In this document: positions 53,843 to 64,000 of the stretch, piece after piece
How the letters are laid out: every line of letters starts with the position of its first letter
Numbering within the stretch: the first letter of the stretch is position 1
Source: Thermoanaerobaculia bacterium
GTDB taxonomy: Bacteria; Acidobacteriota; Thermoanaerobaculia; UBA5066; Gp7-AA6
Assembly: GCA_035498405.1 (NCBI GenBank)
Contig: DATKAE010000011.1
Coordinates: 226-64,225 of the forward strand
DNA: 64,000 nucleotides
Reading direction: 5' to 3'
Made by a program: the position numbers and the translations under genes
The notes under the pieces: generated by a model
Database searches by the model: none
What the model was told of the DNA's origin: nothing
The model's input: the letters and a program-made list of their open reading frames with translations, nothing else

Positions 53843-54363
53843 CGGGCCCTCACCGTGAGAGGGATGGCGATGACGCTCGTCGGCCCGGGCGCCAGTCGAG
53901 CCACTCTGACGCCAGGGAGTTCGGCGTGAAAGCCTGGTCACGGTGCGCGAGTCCCTGGCGGGCGATAGGATCTCTTCAGGAACCAGCACGATGACGCTCA
54001 GGGTCGGTTCGACCAACCCGCACGGATCGAGCCACGCCCTGCGCCCCGTGCGGCCGACGGGCTCGAGGTGGGTTCCCCAGACCGCCGTGACGACGTTTTC
54101 AACGGCGTGGAGTTCCTCGACAGCTCCCGTTCGACCGCAAACCATTGGGAAGATGGCCAGTGGCGGTACTTCATCGATGGCGATGGCCGAAAGTTCCTCG
54201 AAGGGATGGATCTGCGCGATATCTGAGCAGACTACCGGCGCCGGCGACGCTCGGACCAGCGCCGTAGCCGTCGATTGAGATCGAGAAGCGACGGACGCGC
54301 AGTTTCGACACGGCGTCTCTCTCCGGCCTTTTCGGGACAATCTTGATCGGTGCCTCTCGGGCC

Positions 54364-54433
54364 GCCTATCAGGCTCTGGCTCCGCCGCGAGCGACGCGGA
54401 GCGGAGGGAGTCCGCTGCGACGGCGGGTTAGGA
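54364..54433 (-). repeat. attC-like site A (degenerate, most distal)
   Basis: Plus strand: GCCTATC...ggagggagtccgctgcgacggcggGTTAGGA. The 3' arm is homologous to sites F and H (gagtccgctgc). It lies 12 nt after the thioesterase stop. Confidence 0.5.
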
Positions 54434-54445
54434 CGCCGCCTGCCG

Positions 54446-54871
54446 TCAGGACCGCTGCCCATCGATCAAGGAGTGGGCCCGGTCTCGGACGTCGCTCGGC
54501 AAGGCGCGAGCCCTTCGTGTCACGGTATCGAGGTGGACCGCAACGAGAACCGTCCTCGCGGCCACCGCTCCTGTTTCGTCGTTCTTCATCTCGTGAGCGA
54601 AGCGAATGGCCTTGTCCTTCACTTCGAGGATAGTCGACGAGACCGTGACCACATCACCGGGGTACAGCTCATGCTTGTATTCGATGTGCTGCTCGACACC
54701 CGCCATCCCGATGCTCTCGCTGCGCAGACGTGCTGGCGTAAGCCCCATGGCGGCGAAGAGCTGCCACGTCGCCTCATCGAATTTAGCTACGTACCACATG
54801 ACATTCATGTGCCCCATGTGGTCACACTGCGACGGGTAGACCGCTCCACGGTAGGTAACGAGGGCCGTCAC
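54446..54871 (-). CDS. 4HBT-family acyl-CoA thioesterase (YbgC-like hot-dog fold)
   Basis: Trimmed to a GTG overlapping the upstream stop (GTGA). VYPSQCDHMGHMNVMWYVAKFDEATWQLF is typical of 4HBT thioesterases. About 141 aa. Confidence 0.75.
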   Translation of the reverse strand: MTALVTYRGAVYPSQCDHMGHMNVMWYVAKFDEATWQLFAAMGLTPARLRSESIGMAGVEQHIEYKHELYPGDVVTVSSTILEVKDKAIRFAHEMKNDETGAVAARTVLVAVHLDTVTRRARALPSDVRDRAHSLIDGQRS

Positions 54872-55254
54872 GAGTCGGGGCCGGCTGAGTCGGCTTCGCC
54901 TGGCGCGTCGCCCAGGGGCGCGGGGGGCAGCGGCGTCGCGAAGAACCGAACCACCAGCACAATAAGCACCGTCATGACCGCCACCGTAAAGGCCAGGTTC
55001 CGCCCACGCCACAACCCCACGAACCATTCTCGAAACTCCTCCGCAAGGACATTCGCCTTTCCACCATAGAGCTCCAGGTCATGAACATATTTCTTCGTTT
55101 CGAGCGGATCGTAGCCAAGAGGATTGGGAGGCGGGGGACTGGCGCTGATGTAGATGATGATGGCGCCAGCGAAACCTGCCGCGAGGATCGCGGCGGTCAG
55201 GCGCCTGAGGCGTCGCTGCGACACGGGCGCTGGAGAGTTCGTGTCACCCACCAT
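54868..55254 (-). CDS. small membrane protein (2 TM), hypothetical
   Basis: Trimmed to MVGDTNSPAP... TM segments are LTAAILAAGFAGAIIIYI and LAFTVAVMTVLIVLVVRFF. Translationally coupled to the thioesterase. Confidence 0.5.
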   Translation of the reverse strand: MVGDTNSPAPVSQRRLRRLTAAILAAGFAGAIIIYISASPPPPNPLGYDPLETKKYVHDLELYGGKANVLAEEFREWFVGLWRGRNLAFTVAVMTVLIVLVVRFFATPLPPAPLGDAPGEADSAGPDS

Positions 55255-55382
55255 CCCTAGTGTAAAGCTCCGTCCGGTCCGTAGTTGAATGACCCTTCGG
55301 GGCTCGACTCGAACCATTCTCGGAGCCCGAGAATGCGCATGAGATCGTCGTCGCAACGCCTCGCTGCGGCGAGATCTGGAAC

Positions 55383-55470
55383 GCCTATGCCGATGTGGCC
55401 GATGAATCGAGTGCACCGCTTGCGGCGCGCAAGCACGCGAGTGACAGTCCGCCGCAACGCCATGTTAGGC
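55383..55470 (-). repeat. attC-like site B (one end degenerate)
   Basis: Plus strand: GCCTATG...gtccgccgcaacgccatGTTAGGC. The TAA stop of the VOC gene lies inside the minus-strand GCCTAAC box. Confidence 0.55.
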
Positions 55471-55917
55471 GGCGGTTTCGGGCGCGTTGGCTTTGGCATG
55501 GGTTACGATTTCGTACTTGATTCCTTCGGGGTCTTTGAAGAAGAACGCATAGTAGCCGGGTGGTGTGTATCCGGGATATTCCCTTGGCGGAGCGACGATG
55601 ATGGCGCCGATTGCCTCGATTTCGTGATGAAGGCGGTCGACCTCTGCTCGCGAGTCGGCCCGGAAAGCGAGGTGGCGAAGGGCGCCGGGCCTGCGCCGAT
55701 GAACGGCTTCTTGGCGAAGGGCGGTTCTAGGCGAGGAGAGAGCAAAGGAGAGCCGCTCGTGGCTGTATTCGATTACAAAGAAGTCGTGCTTTTCGATAAC
55801 GGAGCTGCTGCGGCTCTCTTTGCTGAATCCGAGAATCGGAAGCAACCGGTCATAAAACGGCGCTGCAATAGCCATATCGCGCACCGTTATCTGAATGTGA
55901 TCGATGATTGGTTTCAC
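55465..55917 (-). CDS. VOC-superfamily (glyoxalase/bleomycin-resistance/dioxygenase fold) protein
   Basis: 150 aa; IDHIQITVRDMAIAAPFYD...LRHLAFRA...YYAFFFKDPEGIKYEIV; GTG start. Confidence 0.8.
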   Translation of the reverse strand: MKPIIDHIQITVRDMAIAAPFYDRLLPILGFSKESRSSSVIEKHDFFVIEYSHERLSFALSSPRTALRQEAVHRRRPGALRHLAFRADSRAEVDRLHHEIEAIGAIIVAPPREYPGYTPPGYYAFFFKDPEGIKYEIVTHAKANAPETAA

Positions 55918-55968
55918 GTCGCTGGCAACCTTATCAATCTCGCCGTCACGACTCCCGCCGCCGGCTCA

Positions 55969-56094
55969 TCATCGGGGGGAACCGACCAAGCACTGCCTTC
56001 TCCCTGAGCAGTAGCTCTTGAGATGATGCCGCTCATCACAAGGTTGGCGAACGAGAAAATGCAGGAAGAGCAAGACCTGATTGAGACCCTTCAT
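55969..56094 (-). CDS. 41-codon ORF with strong Shine-Dalgarno in the VOC cassette leader (speculative)
   Basis: GGAGGA-6 nt-ATG. Translation: MKGLNQVLLFLHFLVRQPCDERHHLKSYCSGRRQCLVGSPR. Confidence 0.2.
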   Translation of the reverse strand: MKGLNQVLLFLHFLVRQPCDERHHLKSYCSGRRQCLVGSPR

Positions 56095-56138
56095 CGGTAT
56101 TCCTCCGATCAATGAGTCAGTCGCGTCACGACATGTCT

Positions 56139-56286
56139 GCCTAACGGGCTGCGCTTCAGCGGCGAACGCCAGTGCGGCCTCTGCCGCCGCAGATGCTCGA
56201 AGTGCCACATTGCCCTAACTCGAGTCCGCCTTTGGGATCGCACAGCCTACGAGCCACGTCAGGCCCAGCCAGGAAAATGCCTAGGC
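56139..56286 (-). repeat. attC-like site C (long, composite or rearranged)
   Basis: The plus strand starts with a perfect GCCTAACGGGCTGCGCTTCAGCGGCGA arm (56139-). A second CCCTAAC-tc-gagtccgcc element lies at 56213-56230. The site ends at GCCTAGGC, which contains the TAG stop of the reductase gene. Confidence 0.4.
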
Positions 56287-56859
56287 CGCCGCCATTCCTC
56301 GCACCTCGTAGCGAAGCTCAACCACGCCGCTCTCGTAGGCTTTGACCTCCGCCAGGTGCAGGGCGACGTCTCTGTCGAGCTTCTCGAAGAATGGGATCCC
56401 ATCACCAATCAAGATCGGGAGGATCGAATAGCGAAGTTCGTCGGCTAGCCCGAGACGAAGACATTCCCCGGAGACTGCACCGCCTCCAACAAACCAGATG
56501 GTACGGAACGCGGGCCGCAGGCGACCATTCACGAACTGCGCGAGATCGCCTGAGTAGAACTCGACCGTATCCCGGGTCCGCGGCAGCTCGCGACGAGTGA
56601 GGACGAAGGTGGGTTTGTCGCCGTACGACCACCGCAGCCCTTTGGCCTCAAAACTCAACGCGGTCTCATATGTTCGCGATCCCATGACGTAGCAATCGAT
56701 CGTCTTGAGGAACGCTTCGACGGATCCTGGGTCCATGGTGTCCCCGCCTACGAATTCGTCTGAGGTGTCGAGCCAGTCGACGCTCCCATCCTTTCGAGCG
56801 ATGAAGCCATCGAGGCTCGCCGCCATGTGGATCGTCACGCGAGAATCAGCGTTTACCAT
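56281..56859 (-). CDS. RibD C-terminal-domain / dihydrofolate-reductase-like family protein
   Basis: 192 aa; MAASLDGFIARKDGSVDWL...YVMGSRTYE...WFVGGGAVSGECLRLGLADEL. Confidence 0.8.
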   Translation of the reverse strand: MVNADSRVTIHMAASLDGFIARKDGSVDWLDTSDEFVGGDTMDPGSVEAFLKTIDCYVMGSRTYETALSFEAKGLRWSYGDKPTFVLTRRELPRTRDTVEFYSGDLAQFVNGRLRPAFRTIWFVGGGAVSGECLRLGLADELRYSILPILIGDGIPFFEKLDRDVALHLAEVKAYESGVVELRYEVRGMAAA

Positions 56860-56993
56860 GGTTTCGCCCTGACGCCGGTGGCGACGGCTCGTGCCAGTCT
56901 TCGAGAGACTCGCTCCCGGTGGCTCTTGAGTACATGACGTGCGAATCTACGCCGGGCAAAGCAGGCACCGAAACCAACCCCCAGCCCGAGTCC

Positions 56994-57069
56994 GCCTAAC
57001 GGGCGGCGCGTCGGCGGCGAGCGAAGAGCCGAAGGTGATGAGCGAGTTCGTTGCACGCGCGTGTTCGGC
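56994..57069 (-). repeat. attC-like site D (76 bp)
   Basis: GCCTAACgggcggcgcgtcggcggcgagcgaagagccgaaggtgatgagcgagttcgttgcacgcgcgtGTTCGGC. 65/76 positions are identical to site H by hand alignment. It lies 1 nt after the methyltransferase stop. Confidence 0.8.
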
Positions 57070-57070
57070 C

Positions 57071-57539
57071 TCACCCAACTTTCGAGCCTACGACCAGCGG
57101 CTGGAAGAATCTGTCGTCGATCCGCCGAACGGCTCGAAACCCCGCCTCATTCATGAGGTCGACGAGGAGCGAAACGGGTATCGCGTAATACTGGGATCTC
57201 ATCACATGGACGGCGCAATCGGACCCGCCAGCGTCCCCGAGAAAATACATGGACAGATCGTAAATCGAGTCGTGAACTTCCCACACCTGAAAGACCAGGA
57301 AACGTCGCCTGCCATCGGTTCTCGGCCCGTAGGGTACGACCTTCGTCCCGACGCACTCCGCAGGATAGGAGTCGCGAACCGACATCAGAACTCCGCCGCT
57401 CGGAGTAGGGCAACGGTACATCTCCCCAAAAACCACGCGGATTTCCTCCATCGGAAAGCAGATGCGGAACCGAGTTATCGCACGCGATTACCAAGTCGAA
57501 GGGTTCCCGATAGGTCGAGGAAAGGGTCCTCAGGTGCAA
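57071..57539 (-). pseudogene. class I SAM-dependent methyltransferase, 5'-truncated and frameshifted
   Basis: Frame 1 gives ...EPFDLVIACDNSVPHLLSD. Frame 2 continues EEIRVVFGEMYRCPTPSGGVLM...YYAIPVSLLVDLMNEAGF. The shift lies in a G-run near 57447-57452. The SAM-binding motif I region is absent, and the ORF begins at the edge of repeat copy 1. Confidence 0.6.
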
Positions 57540-57700
57540 AGCTCGGCGGAGAAAAGCTCGGAGGCAGGTCAGCCTTTCTCGAGGGTTGACGTGGTTTGGC
57601 GGGGCCGACGGAACGCGAAGCCGAAGGCTCCGCCCCTAAACCAAGGCGGCTGAAGAGGCGAGGATCTCGTTGGCCGCGTCCTTGTCCGTGCCGGCTCCCG
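57533..57700 (-). repeat. direct repeat copy 1 with a degenerate tRNA 3'-end-like core
   Basis: Aligns with 60548-60712 at roughly three quarters identity by eye. Core on the minus strand: ccttcggcttcgcgttccgtcggccccgcca. Confidence 0.6.
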
Positions 57701-58112
57701 ACGAGCCATCGCCGAGTGCTTGCTGTCCCCCCCGAAGGAGTGGAGGCTCCCCGGGTTGCGCTCGTCGCGACCTGGGGGGGCAGGGCTGGCGAAAAGATGG
57801 TCCGGTCCATCGGGCCTCCCACCCGGCCAGCTCAAGATCGACCGACCTTCGACCCGCTGCGCAAGGACGTGAGGTGCCAGAGACTCGTCGCCGGCGGGAA
57901 GTAGGCCCGCCTCGTTCCCTCTCAAGCGCGGCGTCCCTCGCTATCGCTCGAGATGACTCGATACATGTACGCACGATCGCCCCCGGCGGCTTTCCGCGCC
58001 AATCCGGGGCAATTGTCCCAGGTGATCACTCCGAATCCGGCCGATTCGGGACGTAGTTCCCATTGTTGGGCGGCGTTGCCGGCGCCATCGTAGGGTCGAA
58101 AGGAGAGATCAC

Positions 58113-59027
58113 ATGCTTTCACACGACTACTCGTATGCCAACGTCCTGCAGAACTCGCTCAAGGTCGCCTGGACGGAGCGCCAGGTTCTCGAAGGCAGAG
58201 ACTTCGACTACTCCAAGCGGTTTCTTCCCAATCGACTCTCGGGAGTGGACGAGATTCGCTGCCTCAACGACCGCGACAAGCTCAAGCTGAATCAGATCAT
58301 GGGCAACGCGTATTGCCACATCTTCGCCTACGTGGAGGAGTACATCATTCCGCAGGCCCTGGAAGCCGCCCAGAAGGACATTTATGGCGACGAGACCCGG
58401 TTGCGTACGCTGCTGCGCTTTGCCGAGGACGAGTCGAAGCACCAGGAACTGTTTCGACGCTCGACGGCGCTGTTCGAGAAAGGCTTCGGAGTCAAGTGTG
58501 GCCTGATCCCCGGCCGTGAGGAGGTCGCCCGCGTGGTGCTCAGCAAGTCGCGGCTCTGCAGCTACCTGCTGACCAGCATGATCGAGTGGTTCACGCAGTT
58601 GCATTACGTCGAGCACGTGCGCGATCGGGGCGAGCTCGACGGACTGTTTCGTGACCTGGTCAAGTATCACTGGATGGACGAGGCGCAGCACGCGAAGATC
58701 GATTCGCTCCTGATCGACGAGATCACCCGGGAGATCGGCGAGGAGGATCGCGAGGCGGCCGTCGACGAGCTGCTCGAGCTCGGCGGCGCGGTCGACGGAC
58801 TGCTGTCGCAGCAGGCCGACCTGGATCTCGAGAGCCTCGAGACTGCCATCGGACGTACGCTTTCGGAGCAAGAAAAAGCGGAGATCAAGCGCAATACCCA
58901 TCGCGCCTACCGCTGGACGTTTCTCGTCTCCGGACTGGAGCATCCGAATTTCGTCCGGATCGTGAGCGAGCTGACCCGCAGAGGGCCGGCGAAGCTCGAG
59001 GCCGTGGCCCGGGCGCTGTCGAACTGA
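58113..59027 (+). CDS. ferritin-like diiron oxygenase (AurF / diiron N-oxygenase-like family)
   Basis: 304 aa, all-helical, with two E...ExxH pairs (FAYVEE / AEDESKHQELF and MIEWF / MDEAQHAKI). Confidence 0.65.
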   Translation: MLSHDYSYANVLQNSLKVAWTERQVLEGRDFDYSKRFLPNRLSGVDEIRCLNDRDKLKLNQIMGNAYCHIFAYVEEYIIPQALEAAQKDIYGDETRLRTLLRFAEDESKHQELFRRSTALFEKGFGVKCGLIPGREEVARVVLSKSRLCSYLLTSMIEWFTQLHYVEHVRDRGELDGLFRDLVKYHWMDEAQHAKIDSLLIDEITREIGEEDREAAVDELLELGGAVDGLLSQQADLDLESLETAIGRTLSEQEKAEIKRNTHRAYRWTFLVSGLEHPNFVRIVSELTRRGPAKLEAVARALSN

Positions 59028-59132
59028 AGGGCGCATGAAGCTGACGGGCGCGTCAGCCTTGCGGCTGTCGTCCTGGCGGCTGGCTGCGAGGCCTGCCGGC
59101 CGCCAGCGCGCCCGCAGCTTTTGCGTCGCCCG

Positions 59133-60206
59133 CTAGGGCCGGAACCCCCGGTCTCGCGCGAAGACGATCGCCTGCGCCCGGGTCCACACGCCGAGCTTGT
59201 CGAAGAGGTTCGAGATGTGGTTGCGGACGGTCTTCTCGCTGATCGTGAGGCGCTCGCCGATGTCGGCGTTGGCGAGCCCCTCGGTGATCAGCACCAGGAC
59301 TTCGCGCTCGCGAGCCGTGAGGCGGGCGAAGGCGGAGTCCTCTTCGCGCGGGGCCGGGAGGCCCGCGAAATCGAGGACGACTTCCCGAAAGCGCTCCCAC
59401 GCCGGCTCGTCCTCGAGAAGGATGTGGTTGCGGGAGTCCAACTCGACGAACTGTGCTCCTGGGATTCCGGCGGCCAGTTGGCGTGCTTCCGAGATGGGAC
59501 AGACCTCGTCATCGCGGGAGTGAATGACGAGCGTCGGCGCCGTGATCGCGCCGAGCAAGCTGGAAACGTCGACCTTCGAGCGAGCCTCGAGGAGCCTCGC
59601 CGCCATTTCGCCGCTGCTGGTCCGGCGGCACAGCTCGTTGTACCAGCCGATTTGCGCTTCGCTGGCTCCGGGAATGAAGCGCGACGTGAAGACCTGGCGG
59701 AACACCGGATTCTCTTTTCCCCAGCCGACCCTCATCAGCTCCAGCATCGCGCGGTACTGGCGCTCGCCCACCGAATCGCCGCGCTGCGCCCAGCCGCGGG
59801 CGTAGCCACCGTAGAGAACCATGCGCGAGACCCGCTCCGGATGGCGCGCGGCGTAGGCGACGCAGATCGCTGCGCCGGACGAGATCCCCAGCAGCGCCAA
59901 CGGCTCCTCGACTCCCGAGGCGGCCACCACGTCCTCGAGATCTCCAAACCAGCGGTCGAACGATAGCTCGTCGACGTCTCGGTCCGTCAGCCCGCAGCCG
60001 CGTTCGTCCCAGCGCAGGAATCGGAAGTGGTCGCCAAAGAAGCGGATCCAGTGCCCCCAGACCGGGCTCTCCAGTTCGTACTCGAGATGGCTCAGCCAGT
60101 TCGCCGCCTTGACCAGGACCGGGCCCGCGCCGATTTCGGCCCAGGCGAGCTGCACACCATCTTCCGTGCGCAGGTAGCGGACGCGCTGACGAAGTTTCGT
60201 GTCCAT
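59133..60206 (-). CDS. alpha/beta-hydrolase domain fused to a LuxR-type HTH (transcriptional regulator)
   Basis: GISSGA (GxSxG) hydrolase core and a C-terminal LTAREREVLVLITEGLANADIGERLTISEKTVRNHISNLFDKLGV. Confidence 0.8.
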   Translation of the reverse strand: MDTKLRQRVRYLRTEDGVQLAWAEIGAGPVLVKAANWLSHLEYELESPVWGHWIRFFGDHFRFLRWDERGCGLTDRDVDELSFDRWFGDLEDVVAASGVEEPLALLGISSGAAICVAYAARHPERVSRMVLYGGYARGWAQRGDSVGERQYRAMLELMRVGWGKENPVFRQVFTSRFIPGASEAQIGWYNELCRRTSSGEMAARLLEARSKVDVSSLLGAITAPTLVIHSRDDEVCPISEARQLAAGIPGAQFVELDSRNHILLEDEPAWERFREVVLDFAGLPAPREEDSAFARLTAREREVLVLITEGLANADIGERLTISEKTVRNHISNLFDKLGVWTRAQAIVFARDRGFRP

Positions 60207-60547
60207 CGCCGTCGGACCCCGAATTGTAGCTATATGGGCGAAGTACTCGCCGTCCCGATCGGTCCTCCTTTGGGTCTACCAGACGCCGGAATCAGCCGAT
60301 ACTTGACGCGCTGCATTCTCAGTCCCGGTCCGCGGCGCGTCCAGTGAAGAAGTGATAGTCCGCGTCCAATGGCCCGCAGCCCGCGTGACATGCTCCCTGC
60401 CGAGAGGTTCGATTCCAGGCTGCCCTCCGTCCGCTGGAGCCCGGGGTCTCAGAACCACATGCTTGGCCGTGTCATTGTCCGTGTTCTGTCCGTGAAGCCA
60501 CGTCCGCTGACGTTCATCCAGCCGACAGGCGACGCGATGTCAGGAAT

Positions 60548-60712
60548 GGCGCAAAGCACGGCGGAGAAAGGCTCGGAACCACATCGACCCTTGTCGAGGG
60601 TTCACGTGGATATGGCGGGGCCGACGGGACTCGAACCCGAAGGCTTCGCAGCTAACTCAAGGCGGCTGAAGGGGTGATGCCTCCGTTGGCCGTGTCTTTG
60701 TCAGTGTCTGTT
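60548..60712 (-). repeat. direct repeat copy 2 with tRNA 3'-end-like core (T-arm, acceptor strand, CCA)
   Basis: Minus strand: CCTTCGGGTTCGAGTCCCGTCGGCCCCGCCA (60643-60613). This is a GGTTCGAGTCC T-loop with a 7-nt acceptor strand, a G discriminator and CCA. No D arm or anticodon arm lies upstream. Confidence 0.6.
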
Positions 60713-60770
60713 CGCCGTCGATAGCGGGCGCGGCTCCCCGAACAAGGTCCCTTCGCGACGATTAGCGGAG

Positions 60771-61973
60771 GTGCTAGGCTTCAGACATTCCTTGAGCGGC
60801 ACACCGACTCAACCCACTCCTCCGCCACCTGCGCCGAACACGCCGACGACCGAGCCGGTGCCTCCGACATCTAGCAGCGCTCGTTCCTTCCAGATTACGG
60901 GTGGGGCCCCTCGACTGCTTCTGGGCTGGTGGATTTTCAGGAAATGGGCTTGGCGGAACACCGCGGGAGCCGTTTACGTCGCCGTGCTCTATTTCGTGGC
61001 CGCTGTCTTCTGGGGCGTCGCATCTGGCAACCCATATCGACCACCTCAATGGGTTTACTCGGGCCTACCGCGTAGCGCTGGTGTCGCAATCGTCTGGCTG
61101 CTCTTAATCTGCGAGCTTCAGCTAACCCAATTCATTGGGTTCCTCTTCTACGTGGCATTCTTCTGGATCTGGCTCCCGTTTCATCTCGCGGGAGCACGTT
61201 CCCAGCGACGCAAAGCAGCCGCTGGACAGACCAATCGAAGCACCAAGCTTTCAACGAGTCTTCGGCTCTGGCACGTTGCTGGTCTCGCGCTTTTGCTCGC
61301 CGTGGTCGTTTTCTGGCCGCTGCCCTCTCGGCTTTTCGCAGGAATTGCGGCCCTGGTCGGGTTAATTCCGGCGGCGCTACTGATCAAGCGGGCCTGGGTA
61401 GTGGCGATGTCTCCTGCTGATTGGGTGGTCGGATTGAAGGGCCGGGCGGCGGACGCCTATCAGAGATGGAAGGCGGAATCGGAGAGGGTAGAAGCAAGAG
61501 GGAATGTGCTAGCAGCGAGCGCAACAGTCCTCCGGGCACCAGCCAAGGTCGTCAGATTCCTCGAAAAACCAATCAACTATCGCGTCGTCCTTCGTACAAG
61601 CGCGATCTTCTACTTTTTCGGGCTCATCGCGATTCTTCTGCTCTACTTGGGCTTTGAGGCGGCGCTTTGGTTGCGCGCCCTAGCGGACGAAAAGGAGCTA
61701 GCCGCTGCGTTCGGGGGAGGAAGCCTTCCCAACATTGTGCTGATGTCTCTGACCTGCTCGTTGGGAATCGTGGGTCAATGGTTGATTAATGTTTCGCGCC
61801 TCGGCATGCCGGGTAATGTGGTCATCGTGACAAGCAGACTTATCGGACTGGTTGGGTCTGGCATCCTCATAGCCGGCTTCCTCTCCCACTACTCGACGGA
61901 CGTGTCCAGGTTAGAGCGACCCTCTCCGCCGAGCAAACCCGACGGCGGCGAGTCCGGTGCGGCCACAGGTTAG
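60771..61973 (+). CDS. polytopic membrane protein (about 8 TM), no recognisable family
   Basis: 400-aa ORF on the strand opposite to the cassettes, with a Pro/Thr-rich N-terminus. The start is uncertain (no in-frame ATG near the 5' end). The last ~10 codons and the TAG stop are encoded by attC-like site E. Confidence 0.5.
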   Translation: MLGFRHSLSGTPTQPTPPPPAPNTPTTEPVPPTSSSARSFQITGGAPRLLLGWWIFRKWAWRNTAGAVYVAVLYFVAAVFWGVASGNPYRPPQWVYSGLPRSAGVAIVWLLLICELQLTQFIGFLFYVAFFWIWLPFHLAGARSQRRKAAAGQTNRSTKLSTSLRLWHVAGLALLLAVVVFWPLPSRLFAGIAALVGLIPAALLIKRAWVVAMSPADWVVGLKGRAADAYQRWKAESERVEARGNVLAASATVLRAPAKVVRFLEKPINYRVVLRTSAIFYFFGLIAILLLYLGFEAALWLRALADEKELAAAFGGGSLPNIVLMSLTCSLGIVGQWLINVSRLGMPGNVVIVTSRLIGLVGSGILIAGFLSHYSTDVSRLERPSPPSKPDGGESGAATG

Positions 61974-61975
61974 GG
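61912..61975 (-). repeat. attC-like site E (half site)
   Basis: Plus strand: ...agcgacc...ggcggcgagtccggtgcggccacagGTTAGGG. It matches the corresponding arm of site G (gaggcggcgagtccggtgcaacggcatGTTAGGC). The partner arm and box are missing. Confidence 0.45.
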
Positions 61976-61998
61976 CGACACGTGGCAATTCCGCTGCA

Positions 61999-62607
61999 TC
62001 AGGGCACAAGCTTCTCCTCGGATCTCTGCTCGCTACCCAATAGAACACCGCGGTTCTTCTCAAAGACAGCCCGGACCTTGGAACCGAGCTGCTTCCGGTT
62101 CCGAACGAATTGAACATTCTTGTGGATGTCGAAGTGAATCTGTGTACGAAGCTTCGGATCCAGTACGCTATTCTCGCTCGCCACGTAGATTACCGGTTTA
62201 CCCGCTCCCTCGGCATACCCCGCTTCAAAATAGCAAGAGGGTCGCTCGTCGGTGAGATCCGCCACCAGGAATTGCGCCCGCTCTATCTCGTCCTTGATCC
62301 GCCGTACTAATTCATCGAGAGGGTATTCCTTGTCGATTCGGATGCCGAAGCAATCGAGTTGATTGAGAACCGTGTTGATGACTTCGAACCTGGCTTCGTA
62401 TTCCGCGTAGACCCGCTGCTCCTCCTGCGTCCCCTCCTCCTCACCCTGGATCGGCATGATCACGAAGACTCTGGTCTTCGTCTGAGACAAACCACGCTTG
62501 GCTTTGGCCTCGAAAGTCGGGAAAAGATTCCGTTTTCTTGCGCTTGAACCGTTCAAACGGTATCCCACGCTTCTTGTCGTATCGCTCCAGCGTGCGGTAG
62601 ATCTCAA
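61999..62607 (-). CDS. nucleoside 2-deoxyribosyltransferase-like / TIR-like flavodoxin-fold domain protein
   Basis: RVFVIMPIQ (strand 1)...FLVADLTDERPSCYFEAGYAEGAGKPVIYV matches the ADxx..NxNVxxExGxAxxxGKPVI signature of the NDT-like fold. The true start is unclear: TTG or ATG near 62480-62457, or a fusion with the upstream ORF. Confidence 0.6.
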   Translation of the reverse strand: MRSTARWSDTTRSVGYRLNGSSARKRNLFPTFEAKAKRGLSQTKTRVFVIMPIQGEEEGTQEEQRVYAEYEARFEVINTVLNQLDCFGIRIDKEYPLDELVRRIKDEIERAQFLVADLTDERPSCYFEAGYAEGAGKPVIYVASENSVLDPKLRTQIHFDIHKNVQFVRNRKQLGSKVRAVFEKNRGVLLGSEQRSEEKLVP

Positions 62608-62770
62608 GATCCGCGACCGGAACCGTCTGGACCTTCTTGCCCCAACTCGTCTGGATAGTCCCGGTCTGAAGGTAGGGAATCACGTAGTCGGATAGCACCT
62701 GTGCTTCCGTACGGTTGTACACCAGCTTTGTCTTGTTGCTGCGAAGTGCTAGAACGTGGAAGAACTGCAT
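62441..62770 (-). CDS. hypothetical ORF; possible N-terminal domain of the NDT-like protein
   Basis: MQFFHVLALRSNKTKLVYNRTEAQVLSDYVIPYLQTGTIQTSWGKKVQTVPVADLEIYRT... The final ~25 codons overlap the NDT-like ORF in another frame. Confidence 0.45.
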   Translation of the reverse strand: MQFFHVLALRSNKTKLVYNRTEAQVLSDYVIPYLQTGTIQTSWGKKVQTVPVADLEIYRTLERYDKKRGIPFERFKRKKTESFPDFRGQSQAWFVSDEDQSLRDHADPG

Positions 62771-62785
62771 TGGGTCATCATCCTC

Positions 62786-62830
62786 CGCAGCGGCGAGTGG
62801 AAGCGAGTCCGCTGCACGCGCGTGTTAGAC
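62786..62830 (-). repeat. attC-like site F (truncated)
   Basis: Plus strand: ccgcagcggcgagtggaagcgagtccgctgcacgcgcgtGTTAGAC. It is identical to site H over gagtccgctgcacgcgcgtgtta. The far arm and box are replaced 15 nt before the next ATG. Confidence 0.55.
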
Positions 62831-63136
62831 GGCCTTTGATGCCTGATCATGGTGACGTGCCCTGCGCAGGAAGGCAAAGGTTGGCGCAGCCACCACTAAG
62901 ACCACCAGCGCCAGAATGGTCGTGTACAGAACTAGGAACCCAAAAGTCTCTTGAGCCGAGGCATCGTGCGGATCTGAGCGCATCACGAGTCTGAAGAGTA
63001 GGCCATCAAGCCAACCAAGCATGCGACCACCCAGGAGACGTGCGTCAAGCTCGAAGAGAGCTGTCAGAACTAGCCAAGAGGCTGAAGCCACCGCCAAGAC
63101 GCCAGTGGTCTTGCGGATAGCGGCGGTGAGCTTCAC
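62825..63136 (-). CDS. small membrane protein (2 TM), hypothetical cassette ORF
   Basis: 103 aa; GTG start 14 nt after site G; the TAA stop lies inside the GTCTAAC box of site F. Confidence 0.55.
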   Translation of the reverse strand: MKLTAAIRKTTGVLAVASASWLVLTALFELDARLLGGRMLGWLDGLLFRLVMRSDPHDASAQETFGFLVLYTTILALVVLVVAAPTFAFLRRARHHDQASKAV

Positions 63137-63150
63137 GGCCTCTCCCAGCC

Positions 63151-63226
63151 GTCTAACGGGCGGCGCATCACCTGCGAGCGACCAAGCGAAGCGAGGCGGC
63201 GAGTCCGGTGCAACGGCATGTTAGGC
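63151..63226 (-). repeat. attC-like site G (76 bp)
   Basis: GTCTAACgggcggcgcatcacctgcgagcgaccaagcgaagcgaggcggcgagtccggtgcaacggcatGTTAGGC. The stop of the 146-aa ORF lies inside the minus-strand GCCTAAC box. Confidence 0.8.
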
Positions 63227-63661
63227 GCCACTCCCATTCGCAGTATCAGTTGTTCGTGTCTTCAACAATTCGTGGCGTTTGAAGGTCGCTCTCGACGCCC
63301 GCTGCGCGATGAGAAGTATTCCGACCCACATAAGAAGTTGCCAAAGGCCGTAGGTTCGGCTGCCGACCAGAACCCAGGTGGCCATTGCGGCGGTCGCGAT
63401 CAGCAGGAACACGGCGACAACCCGCAAGCGAGTTAGCCAGAGAAGGGCAGCGGGGATTGCCAAGGCTGCAGCCGCCGCTGCTGCCACCCATCCGGCGCGC
63501 CGATTTGCCACGATGACAAGCAACGCAACGAGCAGAATAGCGACACTCATGTCGCGGAGGACGAGACCCGCCTCTGTCGCGTTATCAAGCGGGCCGAAGA
63601 AGCGAATTGCCGGGCCTCGGTAACCCTGCGCTCTCTCGAGCTCTTGCTGTCTCTCAAACAC
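63221..63661 (-). CDS. small membrane protein (4 TM), hypothetical cassette ORF
   Basis: 146 aa; GTG start 21 nt after site H; four hydrophobic helices. Confidence 0.55.
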   Translation of the reverse strand: MFERQQELERAQGYRGPAIRFFGPLDNATEAGLVLRDMSVAILLVALLVIVANRRAGWVAAAAAAALAIPAALLWLTRLRVVAVFLLIATAAMATWVLVGSRTYGLWQLLMWVGILLIAQRASRATFKRHELLKTRTTDTANGSGA

Positions 63662-63682
63662 CGACGTGCCCTAAATCCTGGC

Positions 63683-63758
63683 GCTTAACGGGCTGCGCGT
63701 CAGCGGCGAGTGAGGAGCCGAAGGCGACGAACGAGTCCGCTGCACGCGCGTGTTAGGC
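63683..63758 (-). repeat. attC-like site H (76 bp, best preserved)
   Basis: GCTTAACgggctGCGCGTCAGCGGcgagtgaggagccgaaggcgacgaacgagtCCGCTGcACGCGCgtGTTAGGC. Paired stems are GCGCGT/ACGCGC and CAGCGG/CCGCTG, with one unpaired base between them. Confidence 0.85.
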
Positions 63759-63771
63759 AGCGCTCCGAGAA

Positions 63772-64000
63772 TCACCGTTTCAGCCTGGTGGCCTGAATCG
63801 TTACTGTTGTTTTAAGCTCGGATGCGGTTGGACCAGCCTTCAGGATCTGGGTAAAAGACGTGGGAGTGATGTTGGTGAAGACCTCCTGGCGGACAAGTCT
63901 CTTCCCCTTCTCCTCAGTCTCCTCGGTATAGATGAGGCTGTTGCCTTCCCATTTCGCAACGTTCTTGGAAAGCTGGCAGCCGCCCGGGTCATGGCTGGCG
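63772..64000 (-). CDS. partial cassette ORF (3' end), DUF1579-like
   Basis: Hand translation of the only open minus frame: ...ASHDPGGCQLSKNVAKWEGNSLIYTEETEEKGKRLVRQEVFTNITPTSFTQILKAGPTASELKTTVTIQATRLKR*. The stop at 63772 is 13 nt before site H. The 5' end is beyond the window. Confidence 0.55.
   Translation of the reverse strand, partial: ASHDPGGCQLSKNVAKWEGNSLIYTEETEEKGKRLVRQEVFTNITPTSFTQILKAGPTASELKTTVTIQATRLKR

Follow-up and report, generated by a model that had tools for sequence, protein, structure and literature searches.

A scar of mosaic non-cassette DNA in a decaying integron-type cassette array of a Thermoanaerobaculia bacterium

Background

How did about 4.4 kb of DNA that does not look like gene cassettes come to lie inside an integron-type cassette array? 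The question is raised by contig C11 (66,074 nucleotides, nt) of a Thermoanaerobaculia bacterium, of which we analysed a stretch of 64,000 nt (G000:C11:226-64225, hereafter the window); its genome, G000, is a metagenome-assembled genome of 3.98 Mb in 139 contigs that is 89.8% complete. The array spans position 54364 to the contig end and holds, between 54364 and 65453, eight complete attC sites of one family (GCCTAAC...GTTAGGC), together with two partial sites, E and F, and a final attC cut by the contig end. Its cassette open reading frames (ORFs) lie on the minus strand, and the GC content falls from about 67% outside to 55-63% inside the array. A sequence-only reading had proposed that, between sites D and E, a non-cassette segment was inserted into the array or replaced part of it.

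By comparing this segment with related genomes, protein collections and contigs assembled per sequencing run, we found it to be a rearrangement scar, and not a new system or a new kind of element. The captured DNA is shown to be a mosaic of the flexible genome, a patchwork whose history must comprise at least two events. The explanation that we favour, with somewhat better than even confidence, is that illegitimate end joining replaced part of a decaying array with this captured DNA.

Results

Both junctions cut through elements of the array

The features that meet at the two junctions are as follows.

56994-57069, minus strand: attC D, complete (nhmmer 3.9e-19, model positions 2-81)
57071-57536, minus strand: remnant of a class-I S-adenosylmethionine (SAM) methyltransferase cassette, residues 99-251 of 251 (tblastn against the protein of relative G019)
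60771-61973, plus strand: gene of an orphan multi-pass membrane protein, native up to about 61936, after which 11 codons and the TAG stop consist of attC sequence
61930-61975, minus strand: remnant of attC E, with R'' (CCCTAAC, minus strand) and L'' present and L'-R' absent

At the left junction, the measure of the loss is given by relative G019, which carries an intact methyltransferase cassette between two complete attCs. Residues 127-251 of its product correspond to window positions 57448-57074 with 72% identity, and the residues from 99 onward to positions 57533-57309 in a different frame. The 5' truncation noticed from the sequence alone is therefore real, but its extent had been put at a third: 98 of the 251 residues (39%), the SAM-binding motif included, are missing, and the remnant moreover has a frameshift (+1) at about 57448. 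At the DNA level, homology to the cassettes of G019 (81%) and G003 (72%) stops at 57535, which is the base where the homology between two direct repeats (described below) starts, so that the edge does coincide with repeat copy 1 as had been supposed. By sequence comparison, the microhomology at this junction is at most 3 nt, i.e. no more than 3 nt could belong to either side. The frameshift is a genuine feature of the strain, because sequencing run X2 holds, for positions 57337-57478, a contig identical to the window at a depth of 13.2 beside a variant at a depth of 4.1, which has five substitutions and lacks 1 nt at 57448; given this variant, a related co-occurring strain may have this part of the methyltransferase in frame.

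At the right junction, a hidden Markov model (HMM) of attC, built from seven of the eight full attCs of C11 (site C, of 126 nt, was left out) and matched by the full attCs with E-values of 1e-11 to 1e-20, aligns to site E over model positions 28-78 (window 61930-61974) and no further. Nor do the 84 nt that end at the GTTAGGG box of E fold into the long R''/R' hairpin of sites H and K. Only one arm of E has thus survived, in agreement with the sequence-only reading, and the lost L'-R' part is the end that is cut by the integrase. The junction falls within 61930-61943 and is bridged without mismatches by per-run Logan contigs from two runs, one of 2291 nt from X2 (60543-62833) and one of 456 nt from X3 (61548-62003).

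This junction also runs through the membrane protein gene, of which a collection of 5.8 billion proteins holds five homologues at 35-86% identity (a sixth match is the window's own product); the one at 86% is encoded on a contig of 193.9 kb. The three closest end in ...PPGF, ...TPTS and ...LPEG, and the window protein is 11 residues longer, its extra tail KPDGGESGAATG being read from attC sequence, as had been suggested. Since it runs 11 residues past these homologues, the gene has lost its own stop codon and is fused to attC sequence. The 14-mer CAGGTTAGrGCGAC occurs as a direct repeat (61905 and 61962) and might have supplied a second R' box; this reading was rejected, as the copy at 61905 codes for ...SRLE..., the C-terminus that is conserved in the membrane protein family.

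The DNA between the junctions lacks cassette features

The sequence-only reading saw no cassette organisation between the junctions, and the attC HMM agrees, its best match in 57537-61900 having an E-value of 0.7. The segment 57537-61943 has no attC with pairing R''/R' boxes at its end and is not a compact one-ORF unit: within 4.4 kb it holds three genes on both strands and a gene fragment. Marks of an insertion sequence (IS), transposon or group II intron were likewise not found, there being no transposase or reverse transcriptase among the Pfam matches, no inverted repeat pairing the segment ends and no target duplication. An Rfam scan of 54000-64000 at E<=1 gave 0 matches, and ARAGORN detected no tRNA or transfer-messenger RNA (tmRNA) in the segment and only two tRNA-Val genes in the window. 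Besides the membrane protein gene, the segment consists of the following parts.

57533-57697, minus strand: repeat copy 1, att-like, with a truncated P' arm (57533-57596), a core (57597-57623) and a P arm up to a motif at 57671-57690
57815-57904, plus strand: orphan 3' gene fragment, made up of the final ~30 codons with the stop, from a multi-copy family whose products end in ...DPNFDPLRKNPRFQKLVAG
57990-60230, both strands: conserved convergent two-gene module, 82-90% identical in DNA to congeners
58113-59027, plus strand: putative ferritin-like diiron protein (AurF, E 0.0014)
59133-60206, minus strand: alpha/beta-hydrolase-LuxR fusion (GerE 5.8e-19, Abhydrolase_1 2.5e-17)
60464-60706, minus strand: complete attP-like site that includes repeat copy 2, with a motif (60464-60483), P' arm, core (60613-60639), P arm and motif (60687-60706)

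The two-gene module is chromosomal. It occurs in 7 of 11 congeners at the identity given above and in four more distant genomes at 70-73%, and in every locus examined (6 from congeners and 20 of the 63 returned for Acidobacteriota, probably with overlap between the two sets) homology to the window is confined to 57987-60231, and in the 6 congener loci to 57996-60229. No attC was found at the pair in seven loci (six congeners and one genome of the same order) and none within 4 kb in the 20 Acidobacteriota loci. Conservation of the gene order in integron-free relatives, which had been named as a sign against an insertion, was seen for this module only, where it supports, rather than refutes, a non-cassette origin. 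The pair is accompanied in five of the six congener loci (G001, G007, G008, G009 and G011), at a distance of 0.25-6.3 kb, by an aldehyde dehydrogenase gene homologous to G000:C43:4337-5800, and in G011 it sits between this gene and a homologue of C43:6009-6503. In G000 the latter two genes are 209 nt apart with the pair absent there, the copy in the window being the only one in the genome. The flanks of the pair vary widely among relatives and it belongs to a variable neighbourhood.

As to the products, the name LuxR-hydrolase is borne out by the domain matches, while 'diiron oxygenase' stands less firmly: the match to AurF is the sole one and lies under the Pfam cut-off, and neither NCBIfam nor the PDB sequences gave a match. 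Between the convergent stops lie about 105 nt (59028-59132) compared with a few nt in most relatives; this gap contains a 7-bp hairpin (GCTGACG...CGTCAGC) and is not an attC by HMM (E 1.3).

The gene fragment was aligned with two copies from the same genome and 16 from relatives, and its homology to them stops upstream near 57815 (the alignment includes two G022 rows, on which this conclusion does not depend). A multi-copy 'element' of about 90 nt (57815-57912), considered as an RNA or a repeat, proved to be the 3' end of this protein-gene family. For the membrane protein, a search across the order found no credible homologue in 174 other genomes (one weak match, E 7e-4) and a scan of genome contigs found no relative; in metagenome contigs it was matched on two short pieces, which carry neither a repeat upstream nor an attC downstream of the gene.

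The repeats are attP-like sites derived from tRNA-Asp

The two direct repeats of about 165 bp pointed out by the sequence-only reading (57533-57697 and 60548-60713) are about 80% identical and 3.0 kb apart, and the search for further copies that it had called for found only these two in G000. Their core identifies them. That of copy 2 is an exact 27-nt match to the 3' part of tRNA-Asp(GTC), i.e. the T-arm, the 3' strand of the acceptor and CCA, and that of copy 1 is a degenerate form of the same tRNA end (3 mismatches in 27). A 20-nt motif, TGGCCGTGTCnTTGTCCGTG, ends both arms at the three places listed above, and the break in copy 1, 61 nt away from the core, coincides exactly with the methyltransferase junction.

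Each of the 11 congeners has one match to the 27-mer, allowing up to 3 mismatches, which is exact in the ten whose match is listed and corresponds to the 3' end of tRNA-Asp in all six loci tested; tRNA-Asp(GTC) is single-copy. G000 holds no other copy of the 27-mer, nor does its assembly include the 5' or the middle part of a tRNA-Asp gene. Its tRNA-Asp locus is probably an unassembled variable region; the congener tRNA-Asp flanks showed no useful homology to G000 except at the start of contig C2, which lies 3-4.5 kb from the tRNA-Asp position of three congeners.

Longer matches to the repeat were found in 13 of 104 other genomes of the family, distributed over the genera g9 (7/44), g6 (5/10) and g10 (1/1, G020) and absent from the congeners (0/11). 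In the two sister genera g6 and g9, several of these place the sites at tRNA-Asp itself. In G119 (g6), the DNA directly downstream of a real tRNA-Asp matches the side left of the core (60463-60612) at 75% identity over 187 nt, with a second copy of the core 22.5 kb away, and the tRNA-Asp locus of G117 is 73% identical over 266 nt, with the whole P'-core-P architecture present twice. What lies to the right of the core (60640-60707) is found again downstream of tRNA-Asp in G077 and G064 (g9): G077 has two right-arm copies 3.8 kb apart, the nearer one 4.6 kb from the tRNA, with a weaker match between these copies and the tRNA, and G064 has one at 3.5 kb from tRNA-Asp. The islets of G077 (G077:C2:1235356-1243913), which such copies of core and P arm delimit, encode a DUF1254/DUF1214 protein, a Ser/Thr kinase, a GNAT-DoxX protein and a sulfatase, and no integrase.

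Tyrosine recombinases (PF00589) were found neither in the segment nor near the analogous sites of G077, G119, G117 and G064, and G000 encodes them only on contigs C32, C44, C77 and C39. When held against the description of islands in tRNA genes, the segment shows the 3' tRNA fragment in tRNA orientation, and shows neither an intact tRNA at the other end nor an internal tyrosine integrase. The repeats thus bear the signature of attP-like junctions (P'-core-P) between tandem tRNA-Asp islands that would target the T-stem region.

At the outer end of the P' arm (60464-60496) three GKCCGTG heptamers are spaced by 11-12 nt, with two more at the end of each P arm, and these look like iterated protein-binding sites. 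Readings of the repeats as tmRNA, tRNA-Sec or a full pseudo-tRNA were abandoned, the similarity to tRNA-Asp beyond the 27-nt core being by eye about one third. Matches resembling the motif on contigs C91 and C95 of G000 lie in coding sequence and are unrelated, and among viral contigs the 20-nt motif gave two chance matches without tRNA-like context and the pattern of core plus P arm gave 0 matches.

The surrounding array is itself decaying

Decay of the array extends beyond the segment to its right-hand neighbours.

61999-62770, minus strand: cassette between E and F, two overlapping frames, weakly similar to nucleoside 2-deoxyribosyltransferase
62788-62831, minus strand: remnant of attC F, R' end absent (nhmmer model positions 22-80)

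Like E, site F lacks R', and two cassette genes of the array are out of frame; by comparison, the attC matches in the examined stretches of G019 and G003 are full length in 54 of 54 cases. The ribosome-binding site and ATG (62770) of the downstream cassette begin 17 nt past the truncation of F, and two cassettes have therefore been fused. The ORFs of the E-F cassette, of 109 and 202 amino acids, match 2-deoxyribosyltransferase at E 7e-5, under the Pfam cut-off, and probably represent a single frameshifted gene. Site B (55383-55471), of which the HMM matches the right arm and misses the left, folds as a long hairpin (-21 kcal/mol) and is probably a complete site that has diverged in sequence.

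Surrounding the segment are at least two attCs within 4 kb, as in an attC cluster that has no integron integrase (CALIN). G000 has no match above cut-off to the integron integrase model TIGR02249, in an assembly that is 89.8% complete and with an array that runs off its contig, so that this is not a complete integron as detected. IntI adjoins the array at the corresponding end in 5 of 5 relatives tested, and the integrase of this array hence either lies past the right contig end or has been lost. In the relatives, IntI and the cassette genes are on one strand, with IntI pointing into the array (G019:C1:2231878-2232855 and the arrays of G002, G010 and G007), which is the 'inverted integrase' layout. 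Acidobacteria have been described as owning a distinct attC type (PMC8352920). The best explanation of the window is that an uncultured Thermoanaerobaculia-type acidobacterium has a sedentary chromosomal integron, whose array is seen here in its distal part. A lone full attC (G000:C84:211363-211440, E 8e-13), remote from arrays, is located downstream of tRNA-Glu(TTC), 38 nt from its 3' end.

Discussion

How the segment was joined into the array

Under the explanation that we favour, the array would have broken at or near the R' end of attC E, the broken ends would have been resected, and repair by illegitimate, microhomology-poor end joining would have captured a mosaic fragment of 4.4 kb. Such an event would have cost site E its L'-R' half and the methyltransferase cassette its codons 1-98, along with anything that lay between. 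We infer break and capture solely from three observations: the joins lack site specificity, the left one has no more than 3 nt of microhomology, and G000 encodes Ku. As to what could still move, the first site to the left of the segment that keeps its R' box is attC D (GTTAGGC, minus strand, 57000-56994), and, because neither E nor F keeps this box, an integron integrase can here excise no unit smaller than the roughly 6.16 kb between R' of attC G (63156) and that of attC D (57000).

Several points weigh against this explanation. Break and capture are inferred and were not observed, and no donor locus was found, the tRNA-Asp gene being missing from the 89.8%-complete assembly. The gene pair is of the congeners' type and lies between att sites that 0 of 11 congeners possess. 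The uninterrupted order E-methyltransferase-D, for which the sequence-only reading proposed to search, was found in no relative, nor do the relatives share the cassettes that neighbour the methyltransferase. Insertion or replacement is supported in so far as both junctions truncate array elements with non-cassette DNA between them, and a former adjacency of E and the methyltransferase is conjectural. Read support, finally, differs between the junctions. While the right one is bridged in X2 and X3, none of the per-run contigs listed bridges 57536 or covers 57479-57533, and the X1 and X3 contigs over 57572 start at about 57534, as calculated from bin depths. This suggests a branch of the assembly graph, such as strain heterogeneity or a misjoin would give.

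Four other explanations were considered. The first, which we regard as unlikely, is a rearrangement with two breakpoints, in which a larger translocation or inversion joined the array to the tRNA-Asp island region and a deletion followed, without capture of a free fragment. The segment does resemble an excerpt of a tandem island array, and the unassembled tRNA-Asp locus, with C2 starting so close to where the congeners have their tRNA, leaves space for such a history. However, on either side of the 4.4 kb the array continues in one and the same orientation, which would demand two further precise events, and no integrase or IS lies nearby.

We consider it more doubtful still that metagenome assembly or strain mixing falsely created the join of methyltransferase and repeat copy 1. 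The gap in contig coverage at 57536, the apparent start of X1 and X3 coverage there and the second strain variant visible at 57337-57478 are what such a chimera would produce, but the two sides share at most 3 nt, which makes a k-mer misjoin unlikely. Moreover, the right junction is confirmed in two runs, and three runs contain 92-95% of the 31-mers sampled from 56500-63000.

Site-specific integration, by which an integrase would have put tRNA-Asp-type islets into the array via a pseudo-attB, is very improbable: two direct att-like repeats 3.0 kb apart do recall island ends, yet neither junction falls in the 27-nt core, the left one being 61 nt and the right one 1.3 kb distant from it, and the segment encodes no integrase, PF00589 being confined to the four contigs named above. 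That the segment is one or more unusually large cassettes with attCs too divergent to be recognised can be virtually dismissed, since, for all that divergent sites occur here (attC B) and the membrane protein gene has a cassette-like GC content of about 59%, the best internal HMM match has an E-value of 0.7, the gene pair is a chromosomal module without attC in 20 loci, and the membrane protein homologues lie on two metagenome contigs without attC.

Comparison with known systems

Interrupted and split arrays are known. IS have been reported in 23% of complete integrons, and rearrangements have been proposed to split arrays or create CALIN (Cury et al. 2016, PMC4889954). Our captured segment resembles IS and group IIC-attC introns in arrays, as well as split integrons, in that non-cassette DNA interrupts the array and can strand its distal cassettes. 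It differs from the IS and introns in the lack of a transposase, reverse transcriptase, terminal inverted repeat and target duplication, and in being a mosaic of chromosomal and island DNA that was joined without site specificity. What is unusual here is the type of insert, being neither IS, intron nor transposon, and how precisely each piece of it can be followed to its source type.

For tRNA islands, attP sites that carry a fragment of the tRNA gene, sites in the T-stem region and tandem arrays are among the features described for Islander (Hudson et al. 2015, PMC4383910). The repeats share with such tandem islands the 3' tRNA fragment in tRNA orientation beside an island arm and its tandem repetition, and differ from them in the absence of an intact tRNA-Asp and an integrase and in their position inside an integron array instead of at the tRNA locus.

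Insertion by IntI at secondary genomic sites has been described as placing an attC-bearing cassette at a GTT-type site (10.1101/2022.09.11.507474). There too integron DNA is joined to non-att DNA, whereas here non-cassette DNA lies within the array and the junctions have no GTT crossover.

The state of the array as a whole resembles that of decaying chromosomal integrons, such as those of Xanthomonas, in which truncated attCs and frameshifted cassette genes occur and no integrase is found; the host phylum is another one, and the interruption seen here is not an IS.

What the scar means

A farther-reaching reading, to which we attach little credence, is that the scar is a snapshot of gene recruitment by integrons and that, in parallel, the integrase-less islets, bounded by P'-core-P sites of 245 nt at tRNA-Asp in three genera, are a trans-mobilised, cassette-like system of their own. 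If so, a break at the integrase's own cleavage site, R' of an attC, would have been end-joined with chromosomal and island genes trapped in it, and an integrase acting in trans could move the 6.16-kb unit between R' of G and R' of D as a compound cassette, which would be a route to new cassettes without reverse transcription.

Taken as a scar of end joining, as we favour, the segment alone opens no new mechanism and is a well-resolved example of array decay. It provides a base-by-base record of how a chromosomal integron decays, in that sites lose the half cut by the integrase, cassettes fuse and unrelated DNA is welded in. For the annotation of integrons, it indicates that a gap in attC spacing can conceal chromosomal genes and not a missed site. 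Furthermore, the family of tRNA-Asp att sites in Thermoanaerobaculia, with a core and arms that share a 20-nt motif, marks small integrase-less islets and may help to map islands in these uncultured genomes.

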